Positions 9,506-56,201 of a stretch of DNA of 64,000 bases are shown here, piece after piece. Origin of the DNA: Schmidtea nova (taxonomy: Eukaryota); assembly GCA_044892505.1 (NCBI GenBank), contig CM097882.1, positions 121,272,001-121,336,000 on the forward strand, given 5' to 3'. Under the pieces are notes generated by a model, which was given only the letters and a program-made list of their open reading frames with translations, ran no database searches and had not been told where the DNA came from. The stretch's first letter is position 1. Every line of letters begins with the position of its first letter. A program made the position numbers and the translations under genes.

Positions 9506-9679
9506 TAATTNNNNNNNNNNNNNNNNNNNNNNNNNNNNNNNNNNNNNNNNNNNNNNNNNNNNNNNNNNNNNNNNNNNNNNNNNNNNNNNNNNNNNNNNNN
9601 NNNNNNNNNNNNNNNNNNNNNNNNNNNNNNNNNNNNNNNNNNNNNNNNNNNNNNNNNNNNNNNNNNNNNNNNNNNNNNN

Positions 9680-11875: not shown

Positions 11876-11889
11876 AATTTTAATCTTAT

Positions 11890-18074: not shown

Positions 18075-19237
18075 ATGGCATCGAACCAACCAAACCCAAA
18101 CACTTCACAAACACCCATGGACAACGAAAATGCACAATCCCAACACCAAAACAACAATTATTATTACAACCCCGAAAACACACACACCATAAATTCGGTA
18201 ATTAACCCGAAACCCAACCTACCAAACTACTTCACTGACGAAAATGGCACTCCACAAAAATGGCTGGAATTTGCCAAATTAACACTAACAGTTTCAGGTA
18301 TAAAATCCACAAAACCGTATGCTCCAATATTATAGCCGCATTCCCAAGCAACAAACTAAATGAAATAGCGGATCAGATCGAAGAAATTTTTAAGGATGAC
18401 GACCCCTTTAACAAACTGTGTAACATCCTTACGTACAAAAATAAAATAAACAGGAGACAAATGCTAGAGTCATGCCTCAATAACACGCAACTAGGCGACA
18501 ACAAACCAACAGATTTTCTCCGACAACTCAAGCAAAAACTGGAATACCTCAAACCCAACATCACAAATTCAGGCTCCAACGAATTGGTGAAAGAATTTTT
18601 CATGCGAGCAATGCCACCAGAAATCAGGAGGATTCTGGCTGCCAGCAACAACGTTGATGTTGAAACGCTTGCCGATATAGCGAATAAAATCAACGAGGAA
18701 ATTTATCCGACTATATGCAGCACCCAAATCCACAACAAAAACAAAACTAACTACAATAACCCTTCATACAACAAAAATAACTAACAAAACGAAAACATGA
18801 ACAACCTACTAAACACTCTTATCGGCAAATTCGACGAAATAATTGTCGAAAACAAACAAATTAAAACAGAACTAGCCGAAATAAAAGAACGCTGTAATAA
18901 ACAGAACTTTAACTCAACGCAATCATACGATAATTACAACAGATACAACCACAGCAGAGACCAAACATCCAACGGTCAAAACAGACAATGCTACAATCAA
19001 CCCCCAGAATACAACAGACAAAACTACAGCCGCAGTCTATCACCAAACAACAATTACAGAAATCGGTCAAACTCCCCAAATCGAGGCAGCAATTACAGTA
19101 CCAAAAGTCCTGAAAGAGACCCAAGGAATAATTATATAAACAAAAGCCTCTGCTATTTCCACAACAAATTCGGTGAAAAGGCATTTAAATGCACACAACC
19201 CTGCGATTTCAATAAAACAGAGCAGGGAAACCAATAA
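18075..19237 (+). pseudogene. gag: gypsy gag, broken into three ORFs
   Basis: ORFs 18075-18335, 18260-18784 and 18797-19237; ELVKEFFMRAMPPEIRRIL motif and a C-terminal zinc-knuckle-like motif. Confidence 0.8.
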
Positions 19238-19245
19238 GGTCACAA

Positions 19246-21997
19246 ATGATAGCACCCACATCAGGTGACAAAAATAACACATTTTGGGTGCACAGCAATA
19301 ACATAGACTTTTTAATAGATACCGGCTCGGTGATCTCACTACTGCCCCATTTTATGTATAAAAGTGCCAACAAAACAGAAAAACCATTAACAGCAGCTAA
19401 CGGCACAAACATAAAAACTTTCGGGCAACAAAAAATAAATTTAAACATAAATAAAAAGAACTACAACTGGACATTCACCATAGCTGAGGTCCAACAAGCA
19501 ATAATAGGAGCAGATTTCCTAACAAATTACAACCTCCTAGTGGATTGTAAAAACAAACAAATAATAGAAAATATTACTTATACTACAATACCACAGTACA
19601 ACACAAGCAACGGAGGAAAACCAAAAATAGACATCGGTGTTATCCAAACGGGTTCACCTAACAATAAACAAAAACAAAAATTAATTATAAAATAAACTAC
19701 TGAGAAAATTCGAAAAACTAACCGAACTAGTAACCTTCGACAAAAACGCGGATCATTGCACCGAACATGCAATCATAACAAACGGAAACCCAGTTCATGC
19801 AAAGCTGAGACAACTAGATCCACAAAAAACAAAAATTACGAACGAAATTTTCAAGGAGTTACTAGAAAACAAAATAGTAACTCACTCGAACTCTAATTGG
19901 TCCTCAGCACTCATGCTCAAACAAAAGGCAAACGGGGAATGGAGAGCTTGTGGCGACTACCGAATGCTCAACAAAATCACGGAACCAGACAACTACCCGT
20001 TGCCTATCATCAGAGACATAATAAACAGATTAAAAGGAGCAAAACTCTTCTCGAAAATAGATTTACAGAAGGCTTACCACCATATACCTATCAGGAACGA
20101 AGACATTAAAAAACAGCAATCCTAACACCAATCGGCATGTTCGAGTACAACAGAATGCCATTTGGTTTGCGAAACGCAGCTGCAACATTTCAACGATTTA
20201 TGGACAAGACTTTGAAAAATAACCAGAACACAATAGCTTATTTGGACGACATCCTCATAGCAAGTCCAAGCAAAACAATTCATTTTAAAGACATTGAAAA
20301 GGTGTTTGAAACGCTGGACTCAGCAAACCTCAAAATAAACATTCAAAAATGCGAATTCTTGAAAAAAGAAATAAATTTTCTGGGACACACACTGGACGAA
20401 AAAGGCACGAAGCCAATAGACAAGAAAATAAGCACGATACAAGAGTTCAAATTACCGAACACAAACAGAGAGTTAAGACGATTTTAGGGAATGGTAAACT
20501 TTTACCATGCGTACATCCCTAACTGCAGTGAATTGTTAGCTCCACTAAACGACCTGATCAAAACAAGAAGAAATATTAAAATAAACTGGACCGAACAAAC
20601 AACTAAACAGTTTGAAAAAGCAAAAACAAGCCTATCTCAAGCAACATTACTCGGATATCCAAATCCAGAACTAGACTACAACCTAGCAACAGACTGCTCC
20701 GGATATGCAATGGGCGCAACCTTATACCAAGATAACGAACACGGCAAACAGCCAATCGGGTTTTTCTCAAAAAAACTAAAAACACATCAAACACGGTCAA
20801 ACTTTGGTAAGATGTCAGCAATGAAAACACACCAAGAATACTCTTACCAAAAGAGTTTAGGAAATTGTGTATTTCGAAAATACATGACATCAGCCATCCA
20901 GGAAACAAAGCCACCTTCGAAATAATCCACAACAGATACATATGGCCAAATATGAGAAAGAAAATCAAAAGTTTCGTAAAAACATGCAAAAAGTGCCAAA
21001 TCAACAAAATATCAAAGAAACAACAACACAAAAAGTAAACTTTCCAAGCAGCCAACCTTTCGAGATGATTCACATTGACATAGTAGGACCGTTACCACCA
21101 AACAACGGGTACAACTACCTACTCACAATCATCGACAGAAAAACAAACTGGTTCGAAATTGTCCCACTAAAAGAAATATCCGCTCAGAACATATGTAAAA
21201 AGATTGAGCTAAATTGGATAGCTCGCTACGGTCAACCAAAAGTATTGATAACAGACCAAGGGAGACAGTTCGAATCAGAATTATTCAGTACTCTGTGCAA
21301 TAAATACAACATAAAAAGAAACCGCGCAACCGCTTACAACCCTCAAGCAAACGGAAAAATCGAGAGATTGCACAGAACACTAAAGGAAAGTATCAGAACT
21401 AAAGCAGACGACAGGAATTGGCTAAGTCAACTCCCGACAATCTTACTGGGACTAAGAAACACACCAAACTCAATCGAAAATGAAAGCCCAGCATACAAAG
21501 TATTCGGCAGACAATCAAATCTCCCAACAATTAAAAACAATACAGGAAAAAACGCAGAAACCAACAAACAAACAACCAACACAAACAACGAAAGAGTAGA
21601 AAAGAAATTAAAAGGAATCCTAAAAAAGAGAGCGAACTCTGAAATGGACGGAAAAGTAGTTCTAACGACAGACTACGTATTAATCAAAAAGCCCTTCACC
21701 AAAGGTTTCGAACCAAAATATGAAGGCCCATTCAGATTGCTAGAAATTAATAAAAATGTTGCAACAATAATAAAAGACAACATCAAAATAAGAATCAATC
21801 TAAGACGGATAAAACCGTATCACAATAATCAAAACACTTCAAACGACCCCACAAAAGAAAAAGCCTCGACACAAACAAAAACACAAACAAAACATAAACA
21901 CATCACATTCAACTACAAAAATTCAATAAAATTATTCGACAAGGACTCAATAATCACACCTCTATACAAAAAACGCTACAGCGATTGCCTCAAGTAA
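19246..21997 (+). pseudogene. pol: gypsy pol (PR-RT-partial RH-IN) with frameshifts and an RH/IN deletion
   Basis: Domain motifs appear in gypsy order in ORFs 19246-19695, 19913-20125, 20137-20487, 20491-20925 and 20942-21997. Confidence 0.9.
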
Positions 21998-27811: not shown

Positions 27812-28812
27812 TCATTGGCACTTGCATAAGTCTACAAGGAGGTTAGTTGAAGCCTCCATCCTGTTATTGCCATCTGGCGTTTTATAAAGAATCATTAGGT
27901 CTCTAAATTTCCTGGCAGAACAACACGGGAGCTGCTTATACATTTTGATCCTCGCTCTGTCGGCTAGAGAATTCAAATATCGTATCAGAACGTAGTTGTT
28001 GTTGCCTTCATACGTGTTCGCTGGGATAAACTGATAATAATTATGATAATATTATTATAAACTCACAGTAGCATTGCCCTCGGCAGTACGTAATGGGAAT
28101 CGTATGTGGCGCAATTATGTGACTTCCATTTTCAAATGCGACATGCTTTTCCGTGAATATCGTTTGAATGCAGCAATGCGCAGTATTGGAATCCGATGGG
28201 CATTTGTTCCTGTCTTCAATAGATCTCCGCAATCGCCTTTGGACGAGTCGGGTTTGTTTGATAATGATAAATGCAATGGAGTTGTCATTCGAGATTCGAA
28301 TAGACTGATCAAGACAATCTATGCAGATCAGTTGAAAATAAAAACTTTTGTAATACTGAAGGAAGCTTAATTTAGCTGGAGTGATGTCAATTATAATGTC
28401 CATGAGGATTGGGTCAGGTCGGATAGACGAAGATTCAAATATCAAATTATTCCTTGCCAAATTCGGTTGCCCATCAAAGACAATCAGCTTGAATGTACTC
28501 ATTATGGCAGAGCTGTGAGCACTGACTTGAAATTCCAGAAACTGCCATTCGTGGAGACGAGGTTGAGGAAACCTTTCAATCATGAAACAGTTCGTAATGA
28601 AGGCTCCGGAGCACGGCACTTAAATTTGTGATAATGCAGAAAATAATTTGATAGGAAATAGACTCACTTGCTTGCAACGGTAGCATGACGCTGGACACGG
28701 CCTCGTTGACTTGATTGTTCAGCTGTTGGTCAACAAATCTTGGCAACCGGGACCCCATGATAGACAGAGTGACGGAGAGTATGAATATAATCAAAACGTG
28801 TTCCTGGATCAT
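27812..28812 (-). CDS. TGF-beta superfamily ligand precursor, 3 exons (28812-28668, 28618-28067, 28020-27812), 301 aa
   Basis: Signal peptide MIQEHVLIIFILSVTLSIMG; GTGAGT..AG introns of 49 and 46 nt give 906 nt in frame; furin site RRLRRS. The mature domain has 9 Cys: KCP..HCC..HIIAP..YCRGQC..PCC..LCKCQ*. Confidence 0.9.
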
Positions 28813-33200: not shown

Positions 33201-34282
33201 TGACAAAAACCAAGAAAAGGTTATCTTTATTCTTCTAAAAATGTTGATTTTATGTTAGAAGATCCTGGTAGAAATTGTCCTAAACAGGTGAGAAGAATTA
33301 AAATCACTAAAAAGAGGTTCTGTTGATTGTTTTCAGAGACATTTAAAAGCCATAACTAATTAAATCAAATGTCAGTTGAACTATTAAATAAATTGCTTCA
33401 ACCCCCCCCCAGTAAATTGTCGCATTAAGATTGACATAAATAAAATTATACAAGATTATAATAAATATTTAGTAAGCTTGATTTATTTGAGATTCCTCGC
33501 TACTCCACGGAACGAAATAAAAGATGAAAATATTTTTATTTGTTGTTCAAATATAAGATAGAAAATTAAGACCGAAAGCAAGCGTTAAATATTAGTATTT
33601 CTATACACCTCCTGATTCCATAAAAAGATTCGTAAACCAAGCCATGTCGTCGCGATAACCATAACATGAATTGAAATAAAGAGCCAAGTATATTAAAAAA
33701 TGTAAATTATTAATACGAAATATCTATTTCCCAGATCTGCGATCATCCATTTGACCTTTACCCAAGGGCATACTGTCAATCTAATATTATTTCTTCAGTG
33801 CTCACTTTTATTGACCACGCGCCTCTTGTATCTATTTTCATATAAATTATAGCTAGATCATCCATTCGATGCTTGTGGACAATACTTGATCACGCAGATC
33901 TGGCTGAGGGGAACCATTATTCACGGATTACCGTTGAGTGAAGTCCATAACGCGAAACTTTGAAATGGAAAAGTTTTCGACATACAATAAAAAAGACTAA
34001 TATAATAACGCTTCCGACTGCTATCAAGTAGAAAATGTTNNNNNNNNNNNNNNNNNNNNNNNNNNNNNNNNNNNNNNNNNNNNNNNNNNNNNNNNNNNNN
34101 NNNNNNNNNNNNNNNNNNNNNNNNNNNNNNNNNNNNNNNNNNNNNNNNNNNNNNNNNNNNNNNNNNNNNNNNNNNNNNNNNNNNNNNNNNNNNNNNNNNN
34201 NNNNNNNNNTTTGATCTTTTTTTATTATTATTATCAATAATTCTCATAATGACTATAGATCAAATTTTTTTTATAAACAATA

Positions 34283-34315
34283 ACACAATATTTCGGCACA
34301 GCCTTTATCAAGTGT
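34283..34315 (-). ncRNA. Minimal hammerhead-like motif in the 3' pLTR
   Basis: Same ACAC-TTGATAAAGGCTGTGCCGAAATATT-GTGT motif. Confidence 0.6.
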
Positions 34316-34409
34316 GTATTTCTATCGTTATATTTACTTAATCCTAAATAGTAGCCTTAATTATTTTTTTAATATTTTATAATGATTTTATTGGATGAAA
34401 AAATTTATT

Positions 34410-34830
34410 TTAATTTTTTTGTGCGAATTGAATGTTGATGGACGGTTTGTATTTTTTTATGTAAAAAGTCTCGGAAGCTAATCTTTGTAATGAATTTTTG
34501 AATCCCTCTTGTAGAATCTGGCATTTTGTTTCTTCTATAGATGGAGTTGTTTTATGTACTTTCTCCCAGTGTTCGTAATAATTACTGGTTTTGTTTTTAG
34601 TGTGTTCATTAAGTCGGGTGCGAAAAGTTCTATGTGTTTCTCCTATGTAAGTAGCGTCACATTTTTGACAAGAAAGTTTATATACTATATTTTTGGAAAA
34701 GCAAAAGCATCGGGTTGTGGAACGGCAAAGACATTTATGTTTGGAGATGTTGGAAATTGGTGGCTTTCGGAGTTGTGATTTTAACGGTGCGGAGGTTATG
34801 AACGTTGGACGGATGTGGATACTATCCACA
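34410..34830 (-). CDS. GIY-YIG endonuclease domain of the PLE (out of frame with RT in this copy)
   Basis: VYKLSC..C...YIGET.R...RL.EH...E..YI.K.KP.IN pattern. Confidence 0.88.
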
Positions 34831-34842
34831 TCCGTCCAACGT

Positions 34843-37050
34843 TCATAACCTCCTCCACTGGATAGGCAAATCTGTTTGATTAAAAATGTTTGTGATTTTG
34901 TTGGCTGTAGTGTCATTTAGGAAAGGTAATCTTAGATATGTTGTGTGTTTGTTATTGTTATTGTGTTTCTGGCGTTTCCTATTGTTGCGTTTATTGTGGT
35001 ATGGTTCGTTAAGGAAGTGTTTCTTTACAAAGTCTTCAGGGTATCCATTTTGGAGGAATCGTATTTTGAAGTTTTCTAATGTTTCTTGTATTTTGTTTGA
35101 GTCTGAACAGTTTCTTATGGCTCTTTTTCTTTCTCCTATTAGTAATGCGATTTTGCGTTGAAGTGGAACGTAGCTTTTCCATGGGAGGATATGACCACTA
35201 TGTAAACTTTTAGAATAAAGCTCGGTGTTTGCATTTAGTGTATCTTGGCCTTTTGTGAAACTTACCATGGTATCTAAAAACGGTATTTTACCTTCTGTGT
35301 TCGGTGTTTCAAAAGTGAATTGTATGTTGGTGTTAGTAGAATTTGCGTGTGATAGGATTTGATTGAGAGGGATTGTGGAGACTATGAAGATGTCGTCGAT
35401 GTATCGTTTCCAGAAAAGTATTTTATCCCCAAAAAAAGATATGATCTTAGATTCTATAAAGTTCATGTAGAAGATGGCTAAGATGGGAGAAAGGTTATTA
35501 CCCATGGCTAATCCATGAATTTGTTTGAATGGTTTTTCTTTAATTATGACAGTATCTGAATTTATTGCTAATTTTAGAAGTTCTATAAAGTCTTGTTTAG
35601 TTAAGTCTGCGAGGTCAGTGTTGGCTTTATGAGTTTCAAAGAAAGAAGCTGCGATATCGAAAATGTTATTCTCTCCGTGAAGAGGAATAGATCCGTAAAG
35701 ATTGGAAACGTCAAGAGATCCCCAGAAGTACTGTTGTCCTGCGTTTAACGGAAGAGATGTATTTGTAATTTCGGAGACGAATTCAGTTGTGTTTTTAAGA
35801 TGAGAAGGAACCAAAGGCAAAAGTGTTTTTAGGATTTCTGAAAGAACTTTAGAAAGTGTTGTGGAAGGAGTGTCAACTGCGGATACAAGAGGTCTTTCTT
35901 TTAAAGGACTTTTGTGGTCTTTAGGTAACATAGTCATATTACTAGGTAAGGGCTCACTACAGTTGCATTTTAAAAGTAAATCTTTGATTTGAAGGTTGAT
36001 TTGTTTATTTGCAAGTGTTGACAGTTTCTTATTGTATAAAATCTGAGTCGATGCAGGTAAGATTATTTTGTTTATTGGTTCATAGTTCGAGAGATGTTCT
36101 TCAAATAGAGTATTGTATTGTTCTGTGTCAAGGGAAATTAGTCGATTTGTTTTATCTGATGGAAGAATTGTGAAGTCTTTGGAATTCTTAATTTTCTTTA
36201 TGTTTGAAGTGAAAGAATTTTGTGTTGAGCAATGTTTTTCAAGAAAGATAATTTGTTCTCTGACTAAAGTTTTGACTTTAGTTTCTAAACAGCTGATTTT
36301 TTCTTCAAGTTCAGTCGAAAAGACAGGCATATTTGGATATGTTCTACGATTTGGATCCAGAAGATGATTGTGCTTTTCAGCTAAACTTGAAGATTTGGTG
36401 GATGAAATTGGTTTTAGATGGTAACCTATTTGTCTTCTTAGGCTTATAAGAGAGGCGTTAGTGATGACTTCGGCTTTTTCTAAATCTTTCTGGTTAGGTG
36501 GAGGAACAAAAGATGGTCCTAGAGCGAGGATATTTTCTTGTGTTTTGGAAAAAATGTGATTAGATTTGTTTGTAAATGGAAGAATTGAATTTGAGTGTGA
36601 GTATGAGTCTTTAGTGTTGTTTGGATTTGTTGAAAGTAGCGTTTCTAATTTTTTATGCTTGCGAATGTCGAGATTTTTGGAGAAATTCTGGCAACAAGTA
36701 TTATCTTCACAAGTAAGAGGAGCACAAGGAAAACTAGTAAATTCATTTAGCTTTTTGTAACACGCTGAAATGCTAAGTTTAAGCCATTCTTTTTCCTGTT
36801 TTTCCTTAAGCTTCAATGCTTGTGAAGATGGATAGGTTGATTCAAGTTTGTTGGTAACAGTCAGGCCCACGGGAATGATGTTTCTTCTTTTGCATTCATT
36901 TAAAAAATGTAAGTGTGATTTTATTTTGATGATTTTGAGACTATAAAATAACGATTGATCTACTCGGTGATGAGCGTCCGCCAATATACTATCATAATTA
37001 TCTTTTTTCACCTTTGATCTTTTTTTATTATTATTATCAATAATTCTCAT
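34843..37050 (-). CDS. Penelope-like reverse transcriptase (735 aa), separated from its endonuclease by a 43-nt fold-back insertion
   Basis: ORF track and RT motifs. Confidence 0.92.
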   Translation of the reverse strand: MRIIDNNNKKRSKVKKDNYDSILADAHHRVDQSLFYSLKIIKIKSHLHFLNECKRRNIIPVGLTVTNKLESTYPSSQALKLKEKQEKEWLKLSISACYKKLNEFTSFPCAPLTCEDNTCCQNFSKNLDIRKHKKLETLLSTNPNNTKDSYSHSNSILPFTNKSNHIFSKTQENILALGPSFVPPPNQKDLEKAEVITNASLISLRRQIGYHLKPISSTKSSSLAEKHNHLLDPNRRTYPNMPVFSTELEEKISCLETKVKTLVREQIIFLEKHCSTQNSFTSNIKKIKNSKDFTILPSDKTNRLISLDTEQYNTLFEEHLSNYEPINKIILPASTQILYNKKLSTLANKQINLQIKDLLLKCNCSEPLPSNMTMLPKDHKSPLKERPLVSAVDTPSTTLSKVLSEILKTLLPLVPSHLKNTTEFVSEITNTSLPLNAGQQYFWGSLDVSNLYGSIPLHGENNIFDIAASFFETHKANTDLADLTKQDFIELLKLAINSDTVIIKEKPFKQIHGLAMGNNLSPILAIFYMNFIESKIISFFGDKILFWKRYIDDIFIVSTIPLNQILSHANSTNTNIQFTFETPNTEGKIPFLDTMVSFTKGQDTLNANTELYSKSLHSGHILPWKSYVPLQRKIALLIGERKRAIRNCSDSNKIQETLENFKIRFLQNGYPEDFVKKHFLNEPYHNKRNNRKRQKHNNNNKHTTYLRLPFLNDTTANKITNIFNQTDLPIQWRRL

Positions 37051-37086
37051 AATGACTATAGATCAAATTTTTTTTTATAAACAATA

Positions 37087-37119
37087 ACACAATATTTCGG
37101 CACAGCCTTTATCAAGTGT
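37087..37119 (-). ncRNA. Minimal hammerhead-like motif in the 5' pLTR, just upstream of the RT ATG
   Basis: Same motif, in sense to the ORF. Confidence 0.6.
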
Positions 37120-37194
37120 GTATTTCTATCGTTATATTTACTTAATCCTAAATAGTAGCCTTAATTATTTTTTTAATATTTTATAATGATTTAA

Positions 37195-37976
37195 TTGGAT
37201 GAATACGATTCCTCCAAAATGGATACCCTGAAGACTTTGTAAAGAAACACTTCCTTAACGAACCATACCACAATAAACGCAACAATAGGAAACGCCAGAA
37301 ACACAATAACAATAACAAACACACAACATATCTAAGATTACCTTTCCTAAATGACACTACAGCCAACAAAATCACCAACATTTTTAATCAAACAGATTTG
37401 CCTATCCACATCCGTCCAACGTTCATAACCTCCGCACCGTTAAAATCACAACTCCGAAAGCCACCAATTTCCAACATCTCCAAACATAAATGTCTTTGCC
37501 GTTCCACAACCCGATGCTTTTGCTTTTCCAAAAATATAGTATATAAACTTTCTTGTCTAAAATGTGACGCTACTTACATAGGAGAAACACATAGAACTTT
37601 TCGCACCCGACTTAATGAACACACTAAAAACAAAACCAGTAATTATTACGAACACTGGGAGAAAGTACATAAAACAACTCCATCTATAGAAGAAACAAAA
37701 TGCCAGATTCTACAAGAGGGATTCAAAAATTCATTACAAAGATTAGCTTCCGAGACTTTTTACATAAAAAAATACAAACCGTCCATCAACATTCAATTCG
37801 CACAAAAAAATTAAAATAAATTTTTTCATCCAATAAAATCATTATAAAATATTAAAAAAATAATTAAGGCTACTATTTAGGATTAAGTAAATATAACGAT
37901 AGAAATACACACTTGATAAAGGCTGTGCCGAAATATTGTGTTATTGTTTATAAAAAAAAATTTGATCTATAGTCAT
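37195..37976 (+). mobile_element. 5'-truncated inverted PLE copy (RT C-terminus, intact GIY-YIG, 3' pLTR)
   Basis: Reverse complement of 34210-35070 but without the fold-back insertion; the frame ...NQTDLPIHIRPTF... is continuous. Hammerhead-like motif at 37909-37941. Confidence 0.92.
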
Positions 37977-39764
37977 NNNNNNNNNNNNNNNNNNNNNNNN
38001 NNNNNNNNNNNNNNNNNNNNNNNNNNNNNNNNNNNNNNNNNNNNNNNNNNNNNNNNNNNNNNNNNNNNNNNNNNNNNNNNNNNNNNNNNNNNNNNNNNNN
38101 NNNNNNNNNNNNNNNNNNNNNNNNNNNNNNNNNNNNNNNNNNNNNNNNNNNNNNNNNNNNNNNNNNNNNNNNNNNNNNNNNNNNNNNNNNNNNNNNNNNN
38201 NNTACCGCAACTGGCTTCTGAATCCTTGTCAAACCACCTATTCCAAAAATTGTTCATCCATAAAGGGTCGCAAATGCATTTCCTGTTTCCGGAGTCACAA
38301 TAGCCGTGTTCAAAGCAGGACCTTGAACAATCTAGAAATTGGACAAGCTTTCAATTCCCGGAATAAGTCCCAAATATAATTTTGTAATCAAATATTCTAT
38401 TAAATCAATTCAAATTTTTCCTTTGACTCTTTATATAGTTTAGTAACAAATTCTAAAGTTTTGATGGTAAATGATACATATTGTTGAGGTTCGTCTAAAG
38501 TGGTGCAACATGAGACGGGAGTGTACGGGGGATTGGGGAAAAATCAACAAAAGACTTAAAGGTGTTAAATTCACAATTTATAAATAAATACAAAAATTAA
38601 TTAAAAATTAAGAAAAATTATAAATTGACATATTGCGGGCAAAATGGTATAAACCGAATAATAAACCGATTCAAAACAAACAATCCAACAAAATTAACAA
38701 AACTATTAGGATTTCTAAGTCATTTAAAGAAATCTATCTCAGCAATTCCGTTTCTTTTTGTCCTGTCGGCTTCCTGGCCAGAATGAATCATTTTCTGAAA
38801 GTCTGTCTTCTTTCTATTCAAATCTGTCCTACCGGCTTGTCAGGAAATCATAACTGAATTAACAATTTTGCCAACATAGAGGAAGGGTGTCTGACAAAAT
38901 CAGGAAGGTGAATTCTCCTCTCACTCTGAAATTGCTCTTTAATAGCACTCGATATTCCGGATAAATTGAAATATTTTCCAATGAAATCTTATTCACATAT
39001 ATTGAATGCTGTATGGACCTGGCGTTTATATGAGGGCTTATGAAGGGCCCACCAAATTTTCTAAAAGAATTTCATCAGAGAAAATCCAGACAAATGTCAT
39101 TTGCATTCGCATTACACAGTCTGGTATGAAAACGTTATTCATTGATGGCACATAATGCCCGCCAGATGGTGAATGTCTCCCAGTCGCGGGACACGAATGA
39201 AATTATCATTATTTTTAGTCTCATTTCATATAAATGCGTCTTCTTTTATTTACTTTAATTGCACTTTTAGTTAACATTCAGTCAACAAGCCAAGCAAAAA
39301 TAATTAATTATAGCAATCATGGCTTGAGGTCTAATCACAATTTATAAACTCTCATTACTGTCCTTTCCCGCCCGCCTGTGTGGCCTACCTACCATCAATA
39401 CCGCGACATGGGATTCTAGTGAACTTCAAGGAATCATAAACTTATGTAAACTTTCTCAAATAATTTCATTTCTAGTAAAGAAAATATTGTACGATAGAAT
39501 AAAGTAGTACGAAAGAAATATTATTTAGTGAGCAATGGAGGTTGTAGGGAGACAGTTCTTTTAAAACTCATTACTAATATTGACAGTGATTTTAACAGAG
39601 ACTTGTAAAATTTTAAAACATTTCATAGAACTTTTATGAAACGTTGATCAGAGTGAAAATAGTTGTTGAAAACGGTGTTGGTTGTGGGTTCAGGTGGTTA
39701 TGGGTCTTTTTGGCTAATAACAACATTAGTAGAAAAAATAAAAAAAGTATACATCTTATTTGAG

Positions 39765-45649: not shown

Positions 45650-47512
45650 AACCCGTATGTTGGAGTGTCCTCGATGCAGAAAAATCTAAATGGAAATCAA
45701 ATTGAGAAGCCAAGTAAGACAAGTGGAATGTTGGACATGCCACAAAGTTTGACACGTTAGCAGGAACTGCAATTTAAAAAGAGAAGTTCAATGTTTGTCT
45801 TGTGGCGGCGATGGCCATATCAGACGAAATTGTCTAACGATACAATGTAGAAGGGGTAACGTCGGGTATATAAAGAGAGCGAGTGTTACACTAACCTTGA
45901 AAGACGGAATCAAACGGTGAATCAAACGGGGAATAGCTATGGATATAGAGAACCGAGATAACACAGGCAATTTGATGTGCAATAAACGAGATTCCCAAGA
46001 AGAAAGAACAACGTATAATTCAATAAAAGAAAATAGCCGCCTTTGAAAACTAAGATGACAAATCACCAATGAAATACGAAAACGAGATAAATCTATATGA
46101 TGACGAAGAATACCCTAAATATTAAGCTCCACCAAGAGAAGCTTTGATAGGAGCTATATGTTTGTGAGCTATGATTGTATGAATGTAATGAATGTGAATG
46201 ATAATAAAATTATAAATATAAATAATAAAGTAAATAATATAAATATTAAAGTAAATAATATAAATAATGAATTAAATTATAAAGTTAATAAAACCCAAAC
46301 GTATAAAAATAATATTCGAAATGCAATAGAAACAGATATCAGAACACTGGAAAAGTAGATAATTTCTTGAAGAAAGAAATAGTAAGAATCAATGAAATTA
46401 CGGAAACGATATTAGAAAGAGAGGATCATAGGATAATGTATAATAGGATTCAAGGTAGACCAAGTGTGATGCTGAATATAAAATGTTGGAAAATAAATTG
46501 TTTATTAGATACAGGAGTACGAGTGAACGTAATAGCAAAGACAGTTGTGGATAAATTAGATAAAGTAGAAATAATCGAAACCGGTGAATTATTAAAATGT
46601 GCGAATGATAGCAAACTAGAAACTTTAAGTAAGTTATATACTGGAGTTAAAATTGGCGATGTAGAAAGAAATGTATCATTTATTGTTGTTAAAAATATTG
46701 TTCCAGAGATAATTGGAGGAGTTGAACTACAAAAAAGCATTTGGAATAAAACTGGTATGGAACGACGAGAACAGAAAAAGCAATAGTGAATTTATTTGTG
46801 AGATTAAAGCACAATTCGGAAGAAATATATCAGATAACAAAAGAATGAAAAACGCGATATAGAAATTAAAAGTCACAGGAAATACAAGACTCCTAGAAAT
46901 TGTGAAAAATAATAAAAATGTTTTTATGGCAGACAAATGGGATATTGGATGTACAGACCTCATTGAACACAAGAATGTGACAAAAGGAGAAGCGATGATG
47001 ATAAAACCTAGACGACAATAAATAAATCTAAAATTAAAATAGAAAATGCAATAAAAAACTTAGAGAAAAACGATGTTATTAAGAAATGTAATTCGCGTTG
47101 GAACACACCATTATTATGTGTATGGAGAAAAGAGAAAAGAGATCAGATCAGATCATGCTTAGATTTCAGACAACTTAATAAAATAACAGAAAGACAAGCT
47201 TTTCCAATGCCAAACGTTGATGAAATTCTGGATACTCTACACTGGTCGAACTATTTCAGCTCAATAAACTTGGGAAATGCTTGCTACCAAGTAAAGTTAG
47301 ATAAATAATCTCAGGAAAAGACAGCATTTTTGACAAAAGAGGGACAATTTTGCTTAAACAGAATATCTTTCTGTATTGCAGCAGCAACCAAGCCCTTTCC
47401 AAGAACTTATGACCAAAGTATTAAATGAATTATGGAAAGATGGAGTAATGGTATATCTAGATGATATATTGATATTTACAAAAACAATAAAAGAACATTA
47501 TAATATACTAAG
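45650..47512 (+). mobile_element. Decayed gypsy element, 5' part (gag knuckles, protease, RT to YLDD)
   Basis: CWTCHKV*H and CLSCGGDGHIRRNC knuckles; CLLDTG protease; DFRQLNKIT; VMVYLDDILIF. Confidence 0.88.
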
Positions 47513-48767
47513 TGGATCGGCGCATCCAGCTCCTTTTGATTTCCTCATTTTTTGGACTGAGAACGCGAGATTTAATCATAGACAAATTGAAATTCTCATC
47601 ACTATCCGGCAAAGGATATCCATCGGGATTGGTAAACATATCTAATATTTCCGTGCTATTATTAGTTGGCTCGGTTGTTTTACTGTCCAGTGGAACACCG
47701 TCAACATCTAATGGCTCACCGTCATAATCGACAAGAGGTTTAACACGCAGCACATTTTCTTCGTCAACAAATTCCACTCGGTATTTCAAATGAGTATCAA
47801 ACGGTTCTACTTTTTCACCTGGTTTGATATTAGCTCCATTTCGGTGAAAGAAACACACAATGTCTTCCATTTCAAGTTTAAGGCCGCTAACTGGAACTCG
47901 GACATAATTAACATAAGTGCCATTGACACTTTGATCAGACAACCAAAACGAAAGATCATCAGCATTGTATTTTAATGTAGCATGCAATCGACTGAATGTG
48001 CTCAGTAACATATCGGCGTCATTCTTTTTCATTTGCATAATTGTAGGCAGAAATGAGCTGTGTGTCTTGCACAATATTTGAATCAAATTCTTGTAGATAT
48101 TCCGAAATTGCGGTGGAATTGTTTTCGGGCCTTCAATCAAGAGAAAAAGAGCTAAATTCTGATTAAGAGATGAGAAAATGTTCAAAAATTCCAAAGTAAT
48201 CGGATCAGATTTCTGATTGGCTGCTGCTGTTGATGGAATTGATGCATTATTGATGTTTAATTTTTTATTGAATGTATCGGATATATCACAGGAATGCCGT
48301 GATTGTTGAGGTAGCATAGAATAAACGGATGGGAATTCAGATTTCTCCAATTGATAACTTTGAGATCGATTGAGATTGGTTTTACGTGGAAATCCGATTT
48401 CATCTTCTGCTTTCATGAATTCCAATTGGAGGAACTCCCAAATGTTTGAGGAGCATTTCAATGAGTCGTAACAGATGAGTTTATATTCAGCCGCTGTTAA
48501 TATTTCGATATTTCCATGCCGATTGGCCAGATCTTTCCAATGAAACAGGAGATGCTTTAAAATATTGATATCTGAATGTGCCATCAACAGAACGTCGGGC
48601 TCACCACCGAGAAATGCAAAGGCAAAATCATTTAGTGAATTCAAATCAGAAACCCAATCAAATTCAAGTCGCTCCCAAAAAATTATATCTTCAATAAAAT
48701 GAATCCCTGATGAAATATTTGAAACGACAGATAAACCGTTCAAAGATGGTAGAGAAGATAATTCCAT
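47508..48767 (-). CDS. 419-aa LTR-encoded ORF (unknown N-terminus plus partial FHA); stop codon supplied by the target site
   Basis: SRLHATLKY...[16 protein letters not shown]...LEMEDIVCF is the C-terminal half of an FHA domain. Confidence 0.75.
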   Translation of the reverse strand: MELSSLPSLNGLSVVSNISSGIHFIEDIIFWERLEFDWVSDLNSLNDFAFAFLGGEPDVLLMAHSDINILKHLLFHWKDLANRHGNIEILTAAEYKLICYDSLKCSSNIWEFLQLEFMKAEDEIGFPRKTNLNRSQSYQLEKSEFPSVYSMLPQQSRHSCDISDTFNKKLNINNASIPSTAAANQKSDPITLEFLNIFSSLNQNLALFLLIEGPKTIPPQFRNIYKNLIQILCKTHSSFLPTIMQMKKNDADMLLSTFSRLHATLKYNADDLSFWLSDQSVNGTYVNYVRVPVSGLKLEMEDIVCFFHRNGANIKPGEKVEPFDTHLKYRVEFVDEENVLRVKPLVDYDGEPLDVDGVPLDSKTTEPTNNSTEILDMFTNPDGYPLPDSDENFNLSMIKSRVLSPKNEEIKRSWMRRST

Positions 48768-50078
48768 GTTTTCAGAAAAATTAACTCAAATACAATTTAC
48801 ACAAAAAAACCGAAATTCAAAATAAACAACACTTTTAAAGATTTTTATTCAAGATTTCAAAAAACCCCCAACACATTATAAAAACCGTGACGCAGTCAAA
48901 CAAAACAACCACAAGTCTTTTAATTCCACCATTTCCAAAAAAAAACTTCTTTAATCCAACTTCAACAACTCGCGTCTGTGTGCGCACCCCCAGTTGATTC
49001 TGATGATCTCTCTAACAAACAACTCAAATTTGGTGCATTTTGCTTCGTTATATTAATTGTAGTCAGTTTACATTGTTCAATATCATTATAAAAATTCAAA
49101 ATATCATCACTTTGACTCTTAATAAAAGATTTATCAACTTCATTTATGTTTTTACCGTAAGTATTTTTAATTGCATTTTGAAATTGTTTTGCTTTATCGC
49201 AACCGAGTTCCCCGCTTATAATTGCCCATTTATCAGTAATATTATTATCTTCGTTGAAATAGATAGACAGAAAACGTGCAAAAGAAATGTCAAATGTTTC
49301 ATTCATTTGTGCAATTTCCGGTAGAAATTGTACAATAGTGGATTTGAGTTTTTGTAATTTAATATTCAGGTTTTTCTCGAGAATTATTAATAAATTATAG
49401 TTATTACTCACATTTATTCCACTCAAAGGGATATTGAGGGAGTTTTCAATGATTTTATGAGAAAATGATTTGAGAAATATTTTTTCTTGGTCAGTGTTGG
49501 TAAATTTTTTTTAACTTTTTACTAATGTGAAATCGAATCCATCGAATTATTTCCATTACTCGTACATCAGTTATTATATTTAAATCAAATTTCTCTTTGA
49601 ATTCTGTGCTAAGATTAGAAAACTGAATTCCAATATTTTCATCGGCATCAAATTGACATTTGGAAATGAATTTCATTAAACTACCTGGTATTTTATTGTC
49701 GTTAATATTAGAAGAACATTGTTGAGCTTCATTGACATCATCAAAGGGCATAAATTTTTTCAATTTTACAAAGCCAGAAAACTTTTTTATGTCACTTAAT
49801 GAAGAACGAACAGATTTTAAAAGATGACCAATTTCTTCAAATTCTGAAACATTGAATAGGCAATATCCGGAAAATGGATGTAGATAATATTCATTTATCT
49901 TTTTGAAATTGCAAAGTAATAGTGGTAATCACGCATATAAGATTTATATAGATTTCGATAAGACCGTCTAACGGCTTCCAGGCTCGCCCCACAATCTCTC
50001 ATAGCGATCAAGCACCCAATTAATTATTTTAATTATTATTTATTTAATTTTAAAAATATTTTAGAGCGGGCGCGACCA
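47513..50078 (-). repeat. 3' LTR (2566 bp)
   Basis: Same length as 53631-56196 and identical translations of all ORFs; preceded on the minus strand by the PPT. Confidence 0.95.
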
Positions 50079-50091
50079 TTCTCCCCCCTTT
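50079..50091 (-). promoter_or_regulatory. Polypurine tract AAAGGGGGGAGAA abutting the 3' LTR
   Basis: Purine run directly 5' of the TG that starts the 3' LTR on the minus strand. Confidence 0.9.
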
Positions 50092-50166
50092 GACATTCTG
50101 TCAACATCAACACTTCATCCACTTCTCTCTTTCTCCATGACCAGTAAACTCTCCACGAGTCCTCCT

Positions 50167-53100
50167 TTAATTCCAAATGTGGAAGACTCGCCACCTTTTC
50201 CTTTTTATCACCTCAGGAGGAAGTATTTCCTTCCAATCAATTCTTTGCATCCATGCCTCTTGCATGATGCCTTTATTTATTAGTTTTGCAACTGTGTAAA
50301 ACATTATCCGAACCTTTGTAATTTCCCCATCACGCCCCACAACCGGACTATGCAGCATACACCATTTTGTTCTATTTTCCTTTAAATTAACTTCTAATTT
50401 GATCAACTGACTCTCAATTAATTCTTCAACTCTTTTTGATTCGATCAATTCTTCGCCAGTCTTCATTACATTGTTAGAAATAGAAATTTCCCCTTTGGTA
50501 ATTATTTCCAATTTCCTTGAGACTTCTTTAACCAACTCCATGTTAGTACTAAGTCCCATTTTCAAGAAATCTTTTTCTATCATTAAAGATTTCAAGTTTA
50601 ATTTAATATTTTCAATCATTCCCAGACTGTCATTTAGTTTAATTATTAAATTACCATTTACTTCCGTCAAATCCTTCACCAAGGTTTGCTGAGAAGCGAT
50701 TTCGTCATTAGCCGCTCGAAGTTTTTCTAGGTAATCACTTTCCTTTTCTTTCATCTCCACATTTAAATGCCTTTCTTTCGCAGTAAGCTCATTTAAATAG
50801 ATTTCATTTCGTTCAATTTTTATTTCTAGTTCTCGATTTACAGCTGCCAATTTAACATTAATATCATTTACATTTTCTATCTCAGCTGACAACGTTTCTA
50901 CAGTTTCAGCCAAATTCTCTAATTTTACTTCTGATTCATTAATTTCCTTTTTACGTTCTAATTCGATCGTTTCTATTTTCTTTTGAAGAACTTCTATTTT
51001 TAAATGAAGCTGTGTTATTAAACCTGACTTGTCAGCAAGAGAGTGTTTTGTTTCGATTTCATAATTCCTCAAATTCGTTTCCTGCTCACCCTTGTGAGCT
51101 TTAACTAATGCCAGCTCGTCAAATAATTTTGAATATTCTTCAAATAAAGATTCCAATTTACTTTGAATTACATTCTTGCTTTTTGATAAATTCTCATAAT
51201 TAACCATGCAAGATTTCATTTTCGTCTCTAAATCGGCCACCTCCGTTTCTCTCAATTTTAACGACATTGTCTTGCTTCTTTCTTTTTCTAATTCCAATTC
51301 CATTTTATTTTTTCTATTTTCGAATTCAATTTTATCCTTTAGTTCTTCATTTATCAAATTCCCATTTTTCTCTTTCAAACTATTTATTTCTTTGTTCAAT
51401 TCTGAAAATGTTCTTTCTGACGATACCTCTATGGACAGAAATGTACTTCTTCCTTCTTCTTCCATTGTCCTGGAAATACCTTGATTCTTATTCTTCCAAG
51501 ATGGTTTCACCTCTATTTGCTCATTTCTAGACGCTACTCGGTGATCGGTGAAACCATATACTTCTTCCAACACGTTCCGCTTCATTTCTGCTAACTGCGA
51601 TATCCATTCAGTGACTGCTTCTACATTCTTTTCCTTTCTATTCTCCGCTCTCCATTTTGCCCACTGGAACACTAAATCCTCAGGTAATTTCTTTATTAGC
51701 GCCTGATATAGAAATCTACTTTCAATCTCATTTTTCTTGCCCAGCGCTTTAAGCCTTATCATCACTGAACTTATTAACTCTTGAAAGGCTTCCAGTTCAC
51801 CAATCGAATCTGACTGAACAGGATTAAAGCGATTTAATTCCTCCGAAATTGCGAGAAAACCTCTTTCTACACCTCCATATCGCCTGTCCAACCACGCCAA
51901 GGCTGCTTCATACGCATCTGCTGTAAACCCCAGTTGATTTACAACCCTATGTGGTTCATCCTTTAGAGATTGCTTTAAATGCAGCAACTTCTCTACCTTT
52001 GTTCCAAAGGCCGAATCCACACAGGCATCAAAGGTGGCTCTCCACTGAGCATATTCCAACGTTTTCCCATTGAACACTGGGATTTCTATCTTCTTTAATT
52101 TTTCCAACCGTTTCAATACCAAACCTTCCTGACTTTTCCCCTTGGCTCTAAGAATCTTTTCTTCCTGGACTAGTAAATTCGGTTCTTCTATCTCTTGGCT
52201 TTTAATGCTTCTGTCCATCATTCTTTTTTCTGGAAAGCGATTCGCTTCGTTTACTGTGCTTTTGTCTATCTCTAATCTTCCTAAATGTTCATTTTGCTCT
52301 TCGATAGCATCTAATTCCTGATCAAAGCGTCTGGCAGCTTCCAGGTCCCCCAACTCTTCTGCTAAGCTCTTTAGCCTGCTCCAATCCTCCAGCACTTCAT
52401 CAAAGTCTTCTTCGTATTCCTCTTGACGTTGCACGCGATCCGCTTCCGACAGGTATTCTGAGGCTCTCCTGAATAGTCTGGTGAGGTGCGTCTTCTGAAC
52501 GCAGAGCTTCTCGATCCCATTCTTTAGCTGCAACTGTTTGTCTTGGGTTTTCATACCTCCTCGTAATCTCAACCCCAAATGCAAGGTAGATTCCCTTTGC
52601 ATATTATAATAACATAATGTTCGTCCGTCTTCCAGTTGTTTTCCAGCGAAGATCAACCTTTGCTGGTCAGGCGAAATACCTTCTTTGTCTTGTATTCTCG
52701 CTTTTACATTCTCGATTGTGTCACTTGATTCAACTTCCAGGGTAATAGTTTTCCCTGATAAAGTCCTCACAAACATCTGTATACCACCTCTCAATCGTAA
52801 ACCCAATTGCCAAGTTGACTCCGTTTTATTCTCTTTCATTCGCGGACTATACTCTTTTAAACCTGTACTTGCATCACCACTTGGCCTTGAATAACAACAC
52901 AAACATTCCGCTACTTTAGCTTTATTTACACTGTCTTCACGAATACCTAATTTAATATTTTTAGCAAAATGATCATACAAATTTTTATAATTAGCTTCGT
53001 ATTGTATTATTCGTACAATACGTTCTAAGACTTTTCCCCCTAACTCTTTTCTGAATACTTTCAAAATTCTATTTTGTTGCAACATTTCCCGGTTGGTATT

Positions 53101-54885
53101 CAATATAAAATCTCCCCTGATATAACCGGTCCACCTACTAACCTCTACACCTTTAAATCTCGAGTTATCTTTTCCTATACATATTGCTTCATAAGCAGGT
53201 GACACAATTTTATCCCTTTGTCTATTTGATTCATCAAATGATCTTTTCTTATTTTTTGTTTTATCAAAATCTTTAGTTAAAGTTTGCTTTTCACCACATA
53301 CAAGTTTTGTGGGATTATCATAAGTATCCCTAAGTTTCTCACTAAAGGGCATGCTTGATTTATCACTACGGCTACCATCAAGCTTAATAACCTGTTTCAA
53401 ATACGTATTTTCAGGTGACCCATCCTTTTCGTTCTCAGACCCAACTGAGCATAAGGGAAGGGGATGGTCGCGGGGGCCCATTACCGCGCTAAATTCCCCC
53501 ATTAAATTCATTATTAATTTTAAATTTTTAATGTTTTTAGAAAAATATGCGGCGCTGTGACCACTATAAGCAATTAAGAAGCTTACCCGCCGTGCGTGGC
53601 CCCCCGAAGGGAACCACGCTCTGCTACCAATGGATCGGCGCATCCAGCTCCTTTTGATTTCCTCATTTTTTGGACTGAGAACGCGAGATTTAATCATAGA
53701 CAAATTGAAATTCTCATCACTATCCGGCAAAGGATATCCATCGGGATTGGTAAACATATCTAATATTTCCGTGCTATTATTAGTTGGCTCGGTTGTTTTA
53801 CTGTCCAGTGGAACACCGTCAACATCTAATGGCTCACCGTCATAATCGACAAGAGGTTTAACACGCAGCACATTTTCTTCGTCAACAAATTCCACTCGGT
53901 ATTTCAAATGAGTATCAAACGGTTCTACTTTTTCACCTGGTTTGATATTAGCTCCATTTCGGTGAAAGAAACACACAATGTCTTCCATTTCAAGTTTAAG
54001 GCCGCTAACTGGAACTCGGACATAATTAACATAAGTGCCATTGACACTTTGATCAGACAACCAAAACGAAAGATCATCAGCATTGTATTTTAATGTAGCA
54101 TGCAATCGACTGAATGTGCTCAGTAACATATCGGCGTCATTCTTTTTCATTTGCATAATTGTAGGCAGAAATGAGCTGTGTGTCTTGCACAATATTTGAA
54201 TCAAATTCTTGTAGATATTCCGAAATTGCGGTGGAATTGTTTTCGGGCCTTCAATCAAGAGAAAAAGAGCTAAATTCTGATTAAGAGATGAGAAAATGTT
54301 CAAAAATTCCAAAGTAATCGGATCAGATTTCTGATTGGCTGCTGCTGTTGATGGAATTGATGCATTATTGATGTTTAATTTTTTATTGAATGTATCGGAT
54401 ATATCACAGGAATGCCGTGATTGTTGAGGTAGCATAGAATAAACGGATGGGAATTCAGATTTCTCCAATTGATAACTTTGAGATCGATTGAGATTGGTTT
54501 TACGTGGAAATCCGATTTCATCTTCTGCTTTCATGAATTCCAATTGGAGGAACTCCCAAATGTTTGAGGAGCATTTCAATGAGTCGTAACAGATGAGTTT
54601 ATATTCAGCCGCTGTTAATATTTCGATATTTCCATGCCGATTGGCCAGATCTTTCCAATGAAACAGGAGATGCTTTAAAATATTGATATCTGAATGTGCC
54701 ATCAACAGAACGTCGGGCTCACCACCGAGAAATGCAAAGGCAAAATCATTTAGTGAATTCAAATCAGAAACCCAATCAAATTCAAGTCGCTCCCAAAAAA
54801 TTATATCTTCAATAAAATGAATCCCTGATGAAATATTTGAAACGACAGATAAACCGTTCAAAGATGGTAGAGAAGATAATTCCAT
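50167..54885 (-). CDS. 1572-aa chimeric polyprotein: unknown - partial FHA - Hsp90 fragment - Ub tail + ubiquitin - Pao Gag - coiled coil - Pol remnants
   Basis: Single uninterrupted ORF; each domain recognised by motif (see the sub-features). Confidence 0.88.
50210..50364 (-). other. In-frame BEL/Pao Pol remnants (RT N-terminal motif fused to a connection/peptidase A17-like segment)
   Basis: [22 protein letters not shown] resembles WYLPHHPV.K....TKLRIVF; [18 protein letters not shown] resembles ..LQ.LW...LDWD..LP. Confidence 0.7.
51560..52554 (-). other. gag: BEL/Pao Gag region (DUF1759-like)
   Basis: [28 protein letters not shown]...KLLHLKQSL...[13 protein letters not shown]...IKKLP. Confidence 0.88.
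52555..52782 (-). other. Captured ubiquitin (76 aa), preceded by the tail of another Ub unit (52783-52821)
   Basis: [12 protein letters not shown]|[76 protein letters not shown]|M. Confidence 0.97.
52825..53127 (-). other. HSP90: Captured, diverged Hsp90 middle-domain fragment
   Basis: [19 protein letters not shown]...[31 protein letters not shown]...[12 protein letters not shown] vs Hsp90 LNISREMLQQSKILKVIRK...[31 protein letters not shown]...SLKDYCTRMKEN. Confidence 0.93.
53612..53629 (-). promoter_or_regulatory. Primer-binding site TGGTAGCAGAGCGTGGTT (complementary to the tRNA-iMet 3' end)
   Basis: 1 nt downstream of the 5' LTR's terminal CA. TGGTAGCAGAG complements the conserved animal initiator tRNA end CTCTGCTACCA. 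Confidence 0.88.
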
Positions 54886-56196
54886 GTTTTCAGAAAAATT
54901 AACTCAAATACAATTTACACAAAAAAACCGAAATTCAAAATAAACAACACTTTTAAAGATTTTTATTCAAGATTTCAAAAAACCCCCAACACATTATAAA
55001 AACCGTGACGCAGTCAAACAAAACAACCACAAGTCTTTTAATTCCACCATTTCCAAAAAAAAACTTCTTTAATCCAACTTCAACAACTCGCGTCTGTGTG
55101 CGCACCCCCAGTTGATTCTGATGATCTCTCTAACAAACAACTCAAATTTGGTGCATTTTGCTTCGTTATATTAATTGTAGTCAGTTTACATTGTTCAATA
55201 TCATTATAAAAATTCAAAATATCATCACTTTGACTCTTAATAAAAGATTTATCAACTTCATTTATGTTTTTACCGTAAGTATTTTTAATTGCATTTTGAA
55301 ATTGTTTTGCTTTATCGCAACCGAGTTCCCCGCTTATAATTGCCCATTTATCAGTAATATTATTATCTTCGTTGAAATAGATAGACAGAAAACGTGCAAA
55401 AGAAATGTCAAATGTTTCATTCATTTGTGCAATTTCCGGTAGAAATTGTACAATAGTGGATTTGAGTTTTTGTAATTTAATATTCAGGTTTTTCTCGAGA
55501 ATTATTAATAAATTATAGTTATTACTCACATTTATTCCACTCAAAGGGATATTGAGGGAGTTTTCAATGATTTTATGAGAAAATGATTTGAGAAATATTT
55601 TTTCTTGGTCAGTGTTGGTAAATTTTTTTTAACTTTTTACTAATGTGAAATCGAATCCATCGAATTATTTCCATTACTCGTACATCAGTTATTATATTTA
55701 AATCAAATTTCTCTTTGAATTCTGTGCTAAGATTAGAAAACTGAATTCCAATATTTTCATCGGCATCAAATTGACATTTGGAAATGAATTTCATTAAACT
55801 ACCTGGTATTTTATTGTCGTTAATATTAGAAGAACATTGTTGAGCTTCATTGACATCATCAAAGGGCATAAATTTTTTCAATTTTACAAAGCCAGAAAAC
55901 TTTTTTATGTCACTTAATGAAGAACGAACAGATTTTAAAAGATGACCAATTTCTTCAAATTCTGAAACATTGAATAGGCAATATCCGGAAAATGGATGTA
56001 GATAATATTCATTTATCTTTTTGAAATTGCAAAGTAATAGTGGTAATCACGCATATAAGATTTATATAGATTTCGATAAGACCGTCTAACGGCTTCCAGG
56101 CTCGCCCCACAATCTCTCATAGCGATCAAGCACCCAATTAATTATTTTAATTATTATTTATTTAATTTTAAAAATATTTTAGAGCGGGCGCGACCA
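53631..56196 (-). repeat. 5' LTR (2566 bp), with a TATA-like TATATAAA about 130 nt from its start and internal ORFs
   Basis: Direct repeat of 47513-50078, followed by the PBS. Confidence 0.95.
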
Positions 56197-56201
56197 CTAA
56201 G

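Follow-up and report, generated by a model that had tools for sequence, protein, structure and literature searches.

A Bel/Pao long terminal repeat (LTR) retrotransposon in which ubiquitin is fused to Gag was found in a 64,000-nt stretch of the Schmidtea nova genome (NCBI GenBank assembly GCA_044892505.1, contig CM097882.1, positions 121,272,001 to 121,336,000 of the forward strand). This whole stretch is called the window, and all coordinates below are counted from its first letter. The element is a non-autonomous Bel/Pao derivative and is probably young. The reading favored here, with a probability of about 0.65 and judged from the sequence, is that a frame starting inside the LTR would run through ubiquitin into Gag, that host deubiquitinases would free Gag, that the leader would tolerate any cargo inserted in frame, and that a 419-residue frame in the 3' LTR would be a passive copy of this leader. 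This reading builds on the anatomy of the element and on the ubiquitin-Gag junction in its relatives, both of which were observed directly. A preliminary description of the stretch had taken the LTR itself for a gene cassette and missed the ubiquitin-Gag fusion downstream of the frame, which is common to a clade.

Anatomy of the element and its long reading frame

The boundaries of the element and its two main frames are as follows.

46313–47507, plus strand: decayed gypsy-type pol, recognised by eye, split by the insertion and resuming at 56202
47508–47512, no strand: left copy of the target-site duplication CTAAG, which provides the stop codon of the 419-residue frame
47513–50078, minus strand: 3' LTR, TG...CA, 2,566 nt, identical to the 5' LTR
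47508–48767, minus strand: 419-residue frame in the 3' LTR, repeating codons 1–417 of the long frame and closing with an end set by the flank
50079–50091, minus strand: polypurine tract, directly preceding the 3' LTR
50167–54885, minus strand: 1,572-residue frame with LTR cargo, primer-site read-through, HSP90, ubiquitin tail, ubiquitin, Gag, coiled coil, and reverse transcriptase (RT) and RNase H (RH) remnants
53612–53629, minus strand: primer-binding site, presumably of the initiator-Met tRNA type, adjoining the 5' LTR and read as GSRA in the long frame
53631–56196, minus strand: 5' LTR, TG...CA, 2,566 nt, identical to the 3' LTR
56197–56201, no strand: right copy of the target-site duplication CTAAG, 5 bp, matching the left copy

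In the 64-kb window, 47513–50078 and 53631–56196 form an exact direct repeat of 2,566 nt with zero mismatches, and the interrupted gypsy-type pol reading frame resumes beyond the element, so that it is found on both flanks. Membership in Bel/Pao is indicated by the paired TG...CA LTRs with a 5-bp target duplication (class range 4–6 bp), by the primer-binding site and polypurine tract beside the LTRs, and by a DUF1759-type Gag that groups with Bel/Pao Gags. The domains of an autonomous element are incomplete: the Gag zinc knuckles and a complete set of protease (PR), RT, RH and integrase (IN) are absent, and only short RT and RNase H remnants are present. Because its Gag lacks zinc knuckles and pol is missing, the element would need a helper element for movement. 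No Rfam match was found anywhere in the element.

The start ATG sits 1,312 nt into the LTR, and the frame downstream of it is stop-free within the LTR. In the 5' LTR the same ATG (54885) opens 1,572 codons to 50167, and RRSIGSRA is read across the LTR end and the primer-binding site. In the 3' LTR the frame ends WMRRST*, one residue past the LTR, since the last LTR base and the duplicated target together give ACT TAG. The preliminary description had reported an LTR frame free of stops that enters the internal region from the 5' LTR and stops in the 3' LTR at a TAG formed by the target duplication; the exact repeat and the frame translation agree with it. It had also proposed transcription starts near about 56060 and 49942, and the TATA box, TATATAAA, is found at 49950–49943 in the 3' LTR and at the equivalent position in the 5' LTR.

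Downstream of the LTR, the long frame contains the following pieces.

52822–53112, minus strand: HSP90 middle-domain piece, in frame and diverged (Pfam E 2.8e-23)
52783–52821, minus strand: 13-residue tail of a second ubiquitin unit, also ending LRLRGG
52555–52782, minus strand: ubiquitin unit, ending LRLRGG directly ahead of the Gag Met
51655–52554, minus strand: Bel/Pao Gag, N-terminal helical part and DUF1759 core (Pfam DUF1759 E 1.9e-12)
50446–51468, minus strand: about 340 residues, coiled coil by eye, replacing the Gag zinc knuckles, the protease and most of pol
50191–50445, minus strand: short in-frame Bel/Pao RT and RNase H/Peptidase_A17 remnants (E 2e-4 and 0.002 against the database protein P0002)

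Pfam recognised FHA (residues 250–303), HSP90 (592–688), ubiquitin (705–774) and DUF1759 (938–1077) in the long frame, and the Peptidase_A17 match (E 0.0094) was below the cut-off. Residues 335–590 gave no Pfam match and no significant PDB match, and the coiled-coil-like part gave no significant Pfam match and no PDB match. Zinc knuckles, protease and integrase are absent from the frame. The HSP90 piece is identical to human HSP90-alpha at 50 of 96 positions by our count. The FHA, HSP90, ubiquitin-tail, RT and RNase H pieces all stand in their native frame, and all alternative frames of every segment contain stops. By our arithmetic, five recognisable pieces would all be in the native frame about once in 240 by chance if only the frame were free. 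The chance of a random open frame of 419 codons at this base composition is about 1e-14.

The ubiquitin unit is 82% identical to the commonest ubiquitin repeat among the fetched proteins. The structure predicted for ubiquitin joined to Gag (65 sequences, mean predicted local distance difference test (pLDDT) score 89.9) has a separate ubiquitin fold, helical Gag domains and a low-confidence linker at LRGG. Foldseek with this model returned nearly all ubiquitin or ubiquitin-like structures among the best 50 per library, and no capsid match was listed there. Sequence features of a processing signal of the pestivirus type are present, namely a ubiquitin fold, a C-terminal di-Gly and a next residue other than Pro.

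The ubiquitin-Gag junction in related proteins

Nine database proteins carry ubiquitin or a ubiquitin tail directly on the N-terminus of Gag, with differing cargo in front. P0002, found with the Gag region as query, is a complete Gag-Pol in which kinesin and Sec23/24 pieces are followed by a diverged ubiquitin ending LRGG and then by Gag, and its alignment with the window spans the ubiquitin-Gag junction. Seven further proteins were found among the best 150 of 1,825 representatives, with P0025 counted on an 8-residue ubiquitin tail alone. P0166, also a complete element, was added by a profile search. P0002 and P0166 carry the pol domains in the layout Gag-PR-RT-RH-IN.

With the window included, the Gly-Gly end is retained in 9 of 10 (P0055 ends EG), and identity of the ubiquitin unit ranges from 29 to 82% across the set, the 29% being that of P0002. 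The residue after Gly-Gly is Met in four, Ser in four and Gly in one of nine (Met in the window); these rows are not independent because of shared ancestry. Met, Ser and Gly together make up 11% of the following Gag sequence, and all three are stabilising N-terminal residues. Since Ser or Gly follows in five of nine, a Met start is not required.

In a control set of 151 Gag-bearing proteins with at least 130 aligned core residues, ubiquitin was found in none of the 138 outside the group, of which 62 have at least 150 and 28 at least 230 residues upstream of the core. In a quick tree of 146 rows, the window and eight ubiquitin-Gag proteins fell in one group of 13 with a Shimodaira–Hasegawa-like approximate likelihood ratio test (SH-aLRT) support of 99, and the other four members of this group begin inside Gag. 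Scans of JGI metagenomes and of viral contigs gave no Gag relatives. The primer-site peptide GSRA is found 75 residues ahead of ubiquitin in P0166 and 139 residues ahead in P0010, compared with a single occurrence in the 129,246 residues that make up 179 other proteins. This suggests, from the sequence, that the frames of P0166 and P0010 also start in the LTR.

In the proposed mechanism, the 5' LTR would drive one transcript starting near the TATA box, and the frame starting inside the LTR would be translated. Host deubiquitinases would then cut after the ubiquitin Gly-Gly, so that Gag would begin at the same residue irrespective of what precedes it. Because this cleavage would fix the Gag N-terminus, the leader may take any in-frame cargo. 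The pieces would be captured by template switching onto host RNAs during reverse transcription, with newer ones added on the promoter side, and they would be tolerated when the frame stays open. Selection would act on the open frame and not on the function of the cargo. A wider version, which we regard as possible but doubtful, would make the host-cleaved ubiquitin a universal adaptor across the clade and the LTR a translated cargo bay that serially accretes host pieces behind its promoter. New copies and solo LTRs would then scatter a promoter with a stop-less chimeric frame, and released cargo with a free Gly-Gly could be conjugated to host proteins.

Ubiquitin might instead not be a cleavage spacer at all. 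It could remain attached to Gag and serve as a signal in trafficking, assembly or turnover, or be old cargo with Gag starting at its own AUG. An engineered ubiquitin fusion can substitute for a retroviral late domain (PMC8952333). Met follows Gly-Gly in four of the nine, this copy included, and the ubiquitin unit of P0002 is highly diverged, both of which would agree with this alternative. However, Gly-Gly is kept while the rest of the unit drifts, and Ser or Gly takes the next position in the other five. Moreover, cells normally cleave a linear ubiquitin fusion at once if its di-Gly end is intact and Pro does not follow. The alternative as a whole is unlikely.

Several observations weigh against release of Gag from an LTR-started frame. 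Transcription, translation and cleavage of the polyprotein are all deduced from the sequence. In this copy, 26 ATGs precede the main ATG downstream of the TATA region, so its translation may be poor. The ubiquitin of the window has Gly at position 70 and the unit of P0002 shares only 29% identity with ubiquitin, which makes it uncertain whether host enzymes would recognise them. The Gag zinc knuckles are lost in this copy, which weakens the idea of selection for Gag in cis. In a quick tree of 44 rows including P0166, the split received a support of 90, and two of the branches in its ubiquitin part were long. P0006, P0025, P0047 and P0055 start within ubiquitin or shortly ahead of it, and GSRA was not found in the seven proteins other than P0166 and P0010, among them P0002 and two edge-cut proteins. 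The database proteins are also predicted reading frames, so open leaders are over-represented among them.

Other captures were seen in the relatives and near the junction. P0010 (residues 76–141) and the window (52822–53112) both have HSP90 pieces ahead of ubiquitin, which cover adjacent parts of the profile (283–348 versus 187–283). In P0025 and P0041, host coiled-coil pieces (CFAP58, CCDC149) are fused after Gag, where this copy has its apparent coiled coil, and P0025 has CCCH fingers in Gag. P0169 (2,032 residues) carries ubiquitin units ahead of a reverse transcriptase without Bel/Pao domains and may represent an independent capture of ubiquitin by a retroelement of a different type. A likeness of the P0166 leader to SENP8/C48 protease was seen by eye and was not confirmed. 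At 53465–53545, an inverted copy of the first 8 bases of the LTR stands beside an AT-rich stretch like the LTR start (E 0.006) and might descend from an earlier LTR end. The frame gives GPRDH there, and P0002 has the same peptide just ahead of its ubiquitin.

Mosaic structure of the LTR and the 419-residue frame

The segments of the LTR are listed below with their positions in the 3' LTR.

49934–50078, minus strand: high-copy LTR core, 145 nt, deepest contig bin (5' LTR copy 56052–56196)
48985–49928, minus strand: 5' piece of a Nop56-like gene, broken near 49500 and spread over two frames (5' LTR copy 55103–56046)
48844–48849, minus strand: AATAAA, candidate poly(A) signal 82 nt ahead of the ATG, followed by T/G-rich sequence
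47994–48992, minus strand: leader, ATG and residues 1–257, one contig segment of depth 61–867
47760–47993, minus strand: captured FHA+PHD host-gene piece (TCF19-like), residues 259–336, in separate high-depth contigs (5' LTR copy 53878–54111)

The preliminary description had called the 419-residue product an FHA-containing protein. The frame and the Pfam FHA match stand (residues 249–303, E 1.7e-6, 28.8 bits against a cut-off of 20.7), and the match covers only positions 9–63 of the 67 in the profile. Residues 1–250 gave no Pfam match and no Atlas match. The single-sequence AlphaFold model of all 419 residues (pLDDT 32) was uninformative on a beta-sandwich fold. Atlas matches for the whole protein were FHA clusters with scores below 0.9, which serve as a lead only. 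The SRxH and NGT motifs of a functional FHA domain are present, and the GR motif, which supplies the phosphothreonine-binding Arg of FHA domains, is absent, with Lys-Lys aligned to the Gly-Arg of CEP170.

Among proteins of 230–734 residues, the sole match of the 419-residue protein was P0001, a 271-residue FHA+PHD protein. The name TCF19-like for P0001 and for the FHA donor is our assumption from the domain order. The similarity begins at S259, downstream of the IGR of P0001. Across residues 259–336, 2 of the 78 codons encode a different amino acid and 37 differ synonymously. P0001 was considered as the host's own gene and rejected, because the DNA is 82–83% identical with these 37 synonymous and 2 replacement codons; these differences mark P0001 as a relative's copy of the donor gene. 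A scan for the FHA piece found locus L001 and one weak locus, L002. The piece is collinear with the uninterrupted frame of L001, which at 82–83% DNA identity is a relative and not the true donor. Judged by its sequence, the FHA part is a truncated host-gene fragment and not a discrete FHA gene.

The Nop56 piece corresponds to the N-terminal part of the protein (Pfam NOP5NT E 1.3e-14, Nop E 7.5e-4; yeast Nop56 E 1.7e-8). It has no in-frame ATG near its start and contains a frame break, which may be a retained short intron or a frameshift. A fresh capture from a host gene was dropped for these two reasons, and the piece may have arrived via another element. By their sequence, the FHA, Nop56 and HSP90 pieces are of host-gene origin. 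The cargo pieces are truncated or decayed, and they are partial host-gene pieces flanked by element sequence, as in LTR-mediated retroposition.

Four contig sets of one study were compared with 46900–53640. Summed contig depth was lowest in the LTR for the Nop56 piece (27–45 in three runs, 279 in the fourth). It was 61–98 and 867 for residues 1–241 and 621–1,006 and 5,210 for the FHA piece. Depth is higher still near the LTR 3' end, rising from the Nop56 piece towards the primer end, and it is at least 20,000 in the bin with the 145-nt TATA-bearing core. The limits of the deep FHA contigs (47749–47995) coincide with the P0001 match, and 38 contigs of one run diverge into unlike sequences at 49934. 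Contigs of two segments overlap by 8 nt at 48985–48992, a candidate for the short shared sequence expected at a switch point. The order of depths would fit an unchanging promoter core with captured pieces behind it, the most recent of them lying closest to the promoter. Against the favored reading, contig depth is not copy number, and none of the contigs listed bridges the Nop56 junction at 48985–48992. This junction may therefore be private to this copy.

The frame of the LTR is a mosaic, and as a conserved cassette it was overstated in the preliminary description. Summed depth varies about tenfold among the segments, and the leaders of relatives vary. With no stop inside the LTR and no conservation of the leader, it does not have the features of a self-contained LTR gene of the sag or nef type. 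Duplication of the LTR means that the leader frame is necessarily present in the 3' LTR, as in every solo LTR, with an end set by the flank. The C-terminus set by the insertion site, proposed earlier as a source of new fusions, is real in this sense and follows from the design of the element. It looks minor; the flank adds a single residue here. In insertions simulated in this window's flanks only (99,691 sites), the added tail had a median of 11 residues, at least 50 residues in 7% and at least 100 residues in 1.9%. The 419-residue frame of the 3' LTR is probably a passive by-product copy of the leader and not its own gene, although it might occasionally give rise to new fusions.

A working cassette would mean that 3' and solo LTRs are transcribed to give a stable short FHA protein or host fusions as the selected product. 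In its favor, the frame has its own ATG in the LTR and meets no stop there, the TATA box stands in both LTRs, and the FHA piece keeps an intact frame and has high depth in all four contig sets. Residues 246–258 also loosely resemble the FHA loop that is missing, although Lys takes the place of the Gly-Arg of CEP170. The short product would require transcription of the 3' LTR past AATAAA and across the 26 upstream ATGs; any 5' LTR transcript has to cross this sequence, and a 3' LTR transcript might do likewise. However, the FHA part lacks the GR motif and everything preceding it, the leaders of relatives are unrelated, the flank-set tails are short, and the only match in the size range of 230–734 residues is a host-type gene. 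Together with the upstream ATGs and the AATAAA ahead of the start, these findings make a selected short protein quite improbable.

An assembly or polishing error, which might produce the zero LTR mismatches, the unspanned Nop56 junction and the 700–900 extra letters foreign to this stretch in three listed contigs, is very improbable given the clean 5-bp target duplication, the TG...CA ends, the primer site and purine tract, the pol frame resuming on both sides, no more than 4 letters of difference between the window and any listed contig over the LTR segments, an open frame of 1,572 codons and the same design in unrelated database entries.

Other features of the window and comparison with known systems

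Outside the element, the window contains a Penelope-like element (34262–37976) with a 735-residue RT frame and a GIY-YIG frame on the minus strand and inverted terminal copies. A large foldback-like inverted repeat (7300–14960) has arms of 1,447 nt at 99% identity and tandem units around a repeat-rich core. A decayed gypsy-type element with an integrase core lies on the plus strand at 18239–21997. A frame at 28041–28619 has a weak TGF-beta-like match (E 0.042, below cut-off) and is possibly a host exon. A mariner-like transposase fragment (3430–3792) and a cysteine-rich exon-like frame (37973–38350) are candidates recognised by eye.

Compared with TCF19-like FHA+PHD proteins, the element is alike in residues 259–336, which differ from P0001 at only 2 of 78 positions. 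It is different in holding only the C-terminal FHA part, without the GR motif and without the PHD finger.

Coding sequence within an LTR, and hence duplicated, is familiar from the GAG start of Ty1 in the 5' LTR, also carried by Ty1 solo LTRs, and from MMTV sag and HIV nef. In those examples the overlap is short or the gene is conserved and has its own stop, whereas here 417 stop-less codons form a variable host mosaic.

The element shares with Bel/Pao (Belpaoviridae, semotivirus) the TG...CA LTRs, the 5-bp duplication, the DUF1759 Gag and, as remnants, RT and Peptidase_A17. It differs in that the frame starts 1.25 kb inside the LTR and reads through the primer site, that ubiquitin is fused to Gag, and that the 2.6-kb LTR is made of host pieces. 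The word "ubiquitin" was not found in the Bel/Pao overview PMC2774666. No report of a Bel/Pao element with a ubiquitin-Gag fusion and cargo in the LTR was found in the searched part of the literature, which takes in few subscription journals and not Repbase. Extra domains in giant elements have been published (PMC6431247).

Capture of host genes by LTR elements, Pao included, is already published. Tan et al. 2016 (PMC5131818) describe LTR-mediated retroposition, in which partial host-gene pieces from several donors per element are joined with short shared sequence at the switch points, by template switching onto host RNAs during reverse transcription; one example is in a Pao element. The present element resembles these cases and maize Bs1, cited there, in its partial host pieces, its several donors and its non-autonomous spread. 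In contrast, in the passages on those cases the captures replace internal ORFs. Here they also lie inside the LTR, in one frame with Gag and with ubiquitin between.

Captured pieces usually break an element. A cleavable ubiquitin spacer, if true, would explain how cargo can pile up ahead of Gag, even in the LTR, while the proper Gag N-terminus is retained, and it would offer a fast route to shuffled chimeric frames. There is a likeness with cytopathic pestiviruses, in which captured cellular ubiquitin stands in the polyprotein ahead of the next protein and host ubiquitin hydrolases create the N-terminus of NS3 (PMC8310069). The pestivirus insertions are strain-level events in an RNA virus, with cleavage shown. 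Here, in contrast, ubiquitin appears to be an old clade trait of a retrotransposon and its cleavage is a prediction. If the reading is right, the element would be the retrotransposon counterpart of the pestivirus ubiquitin trick.

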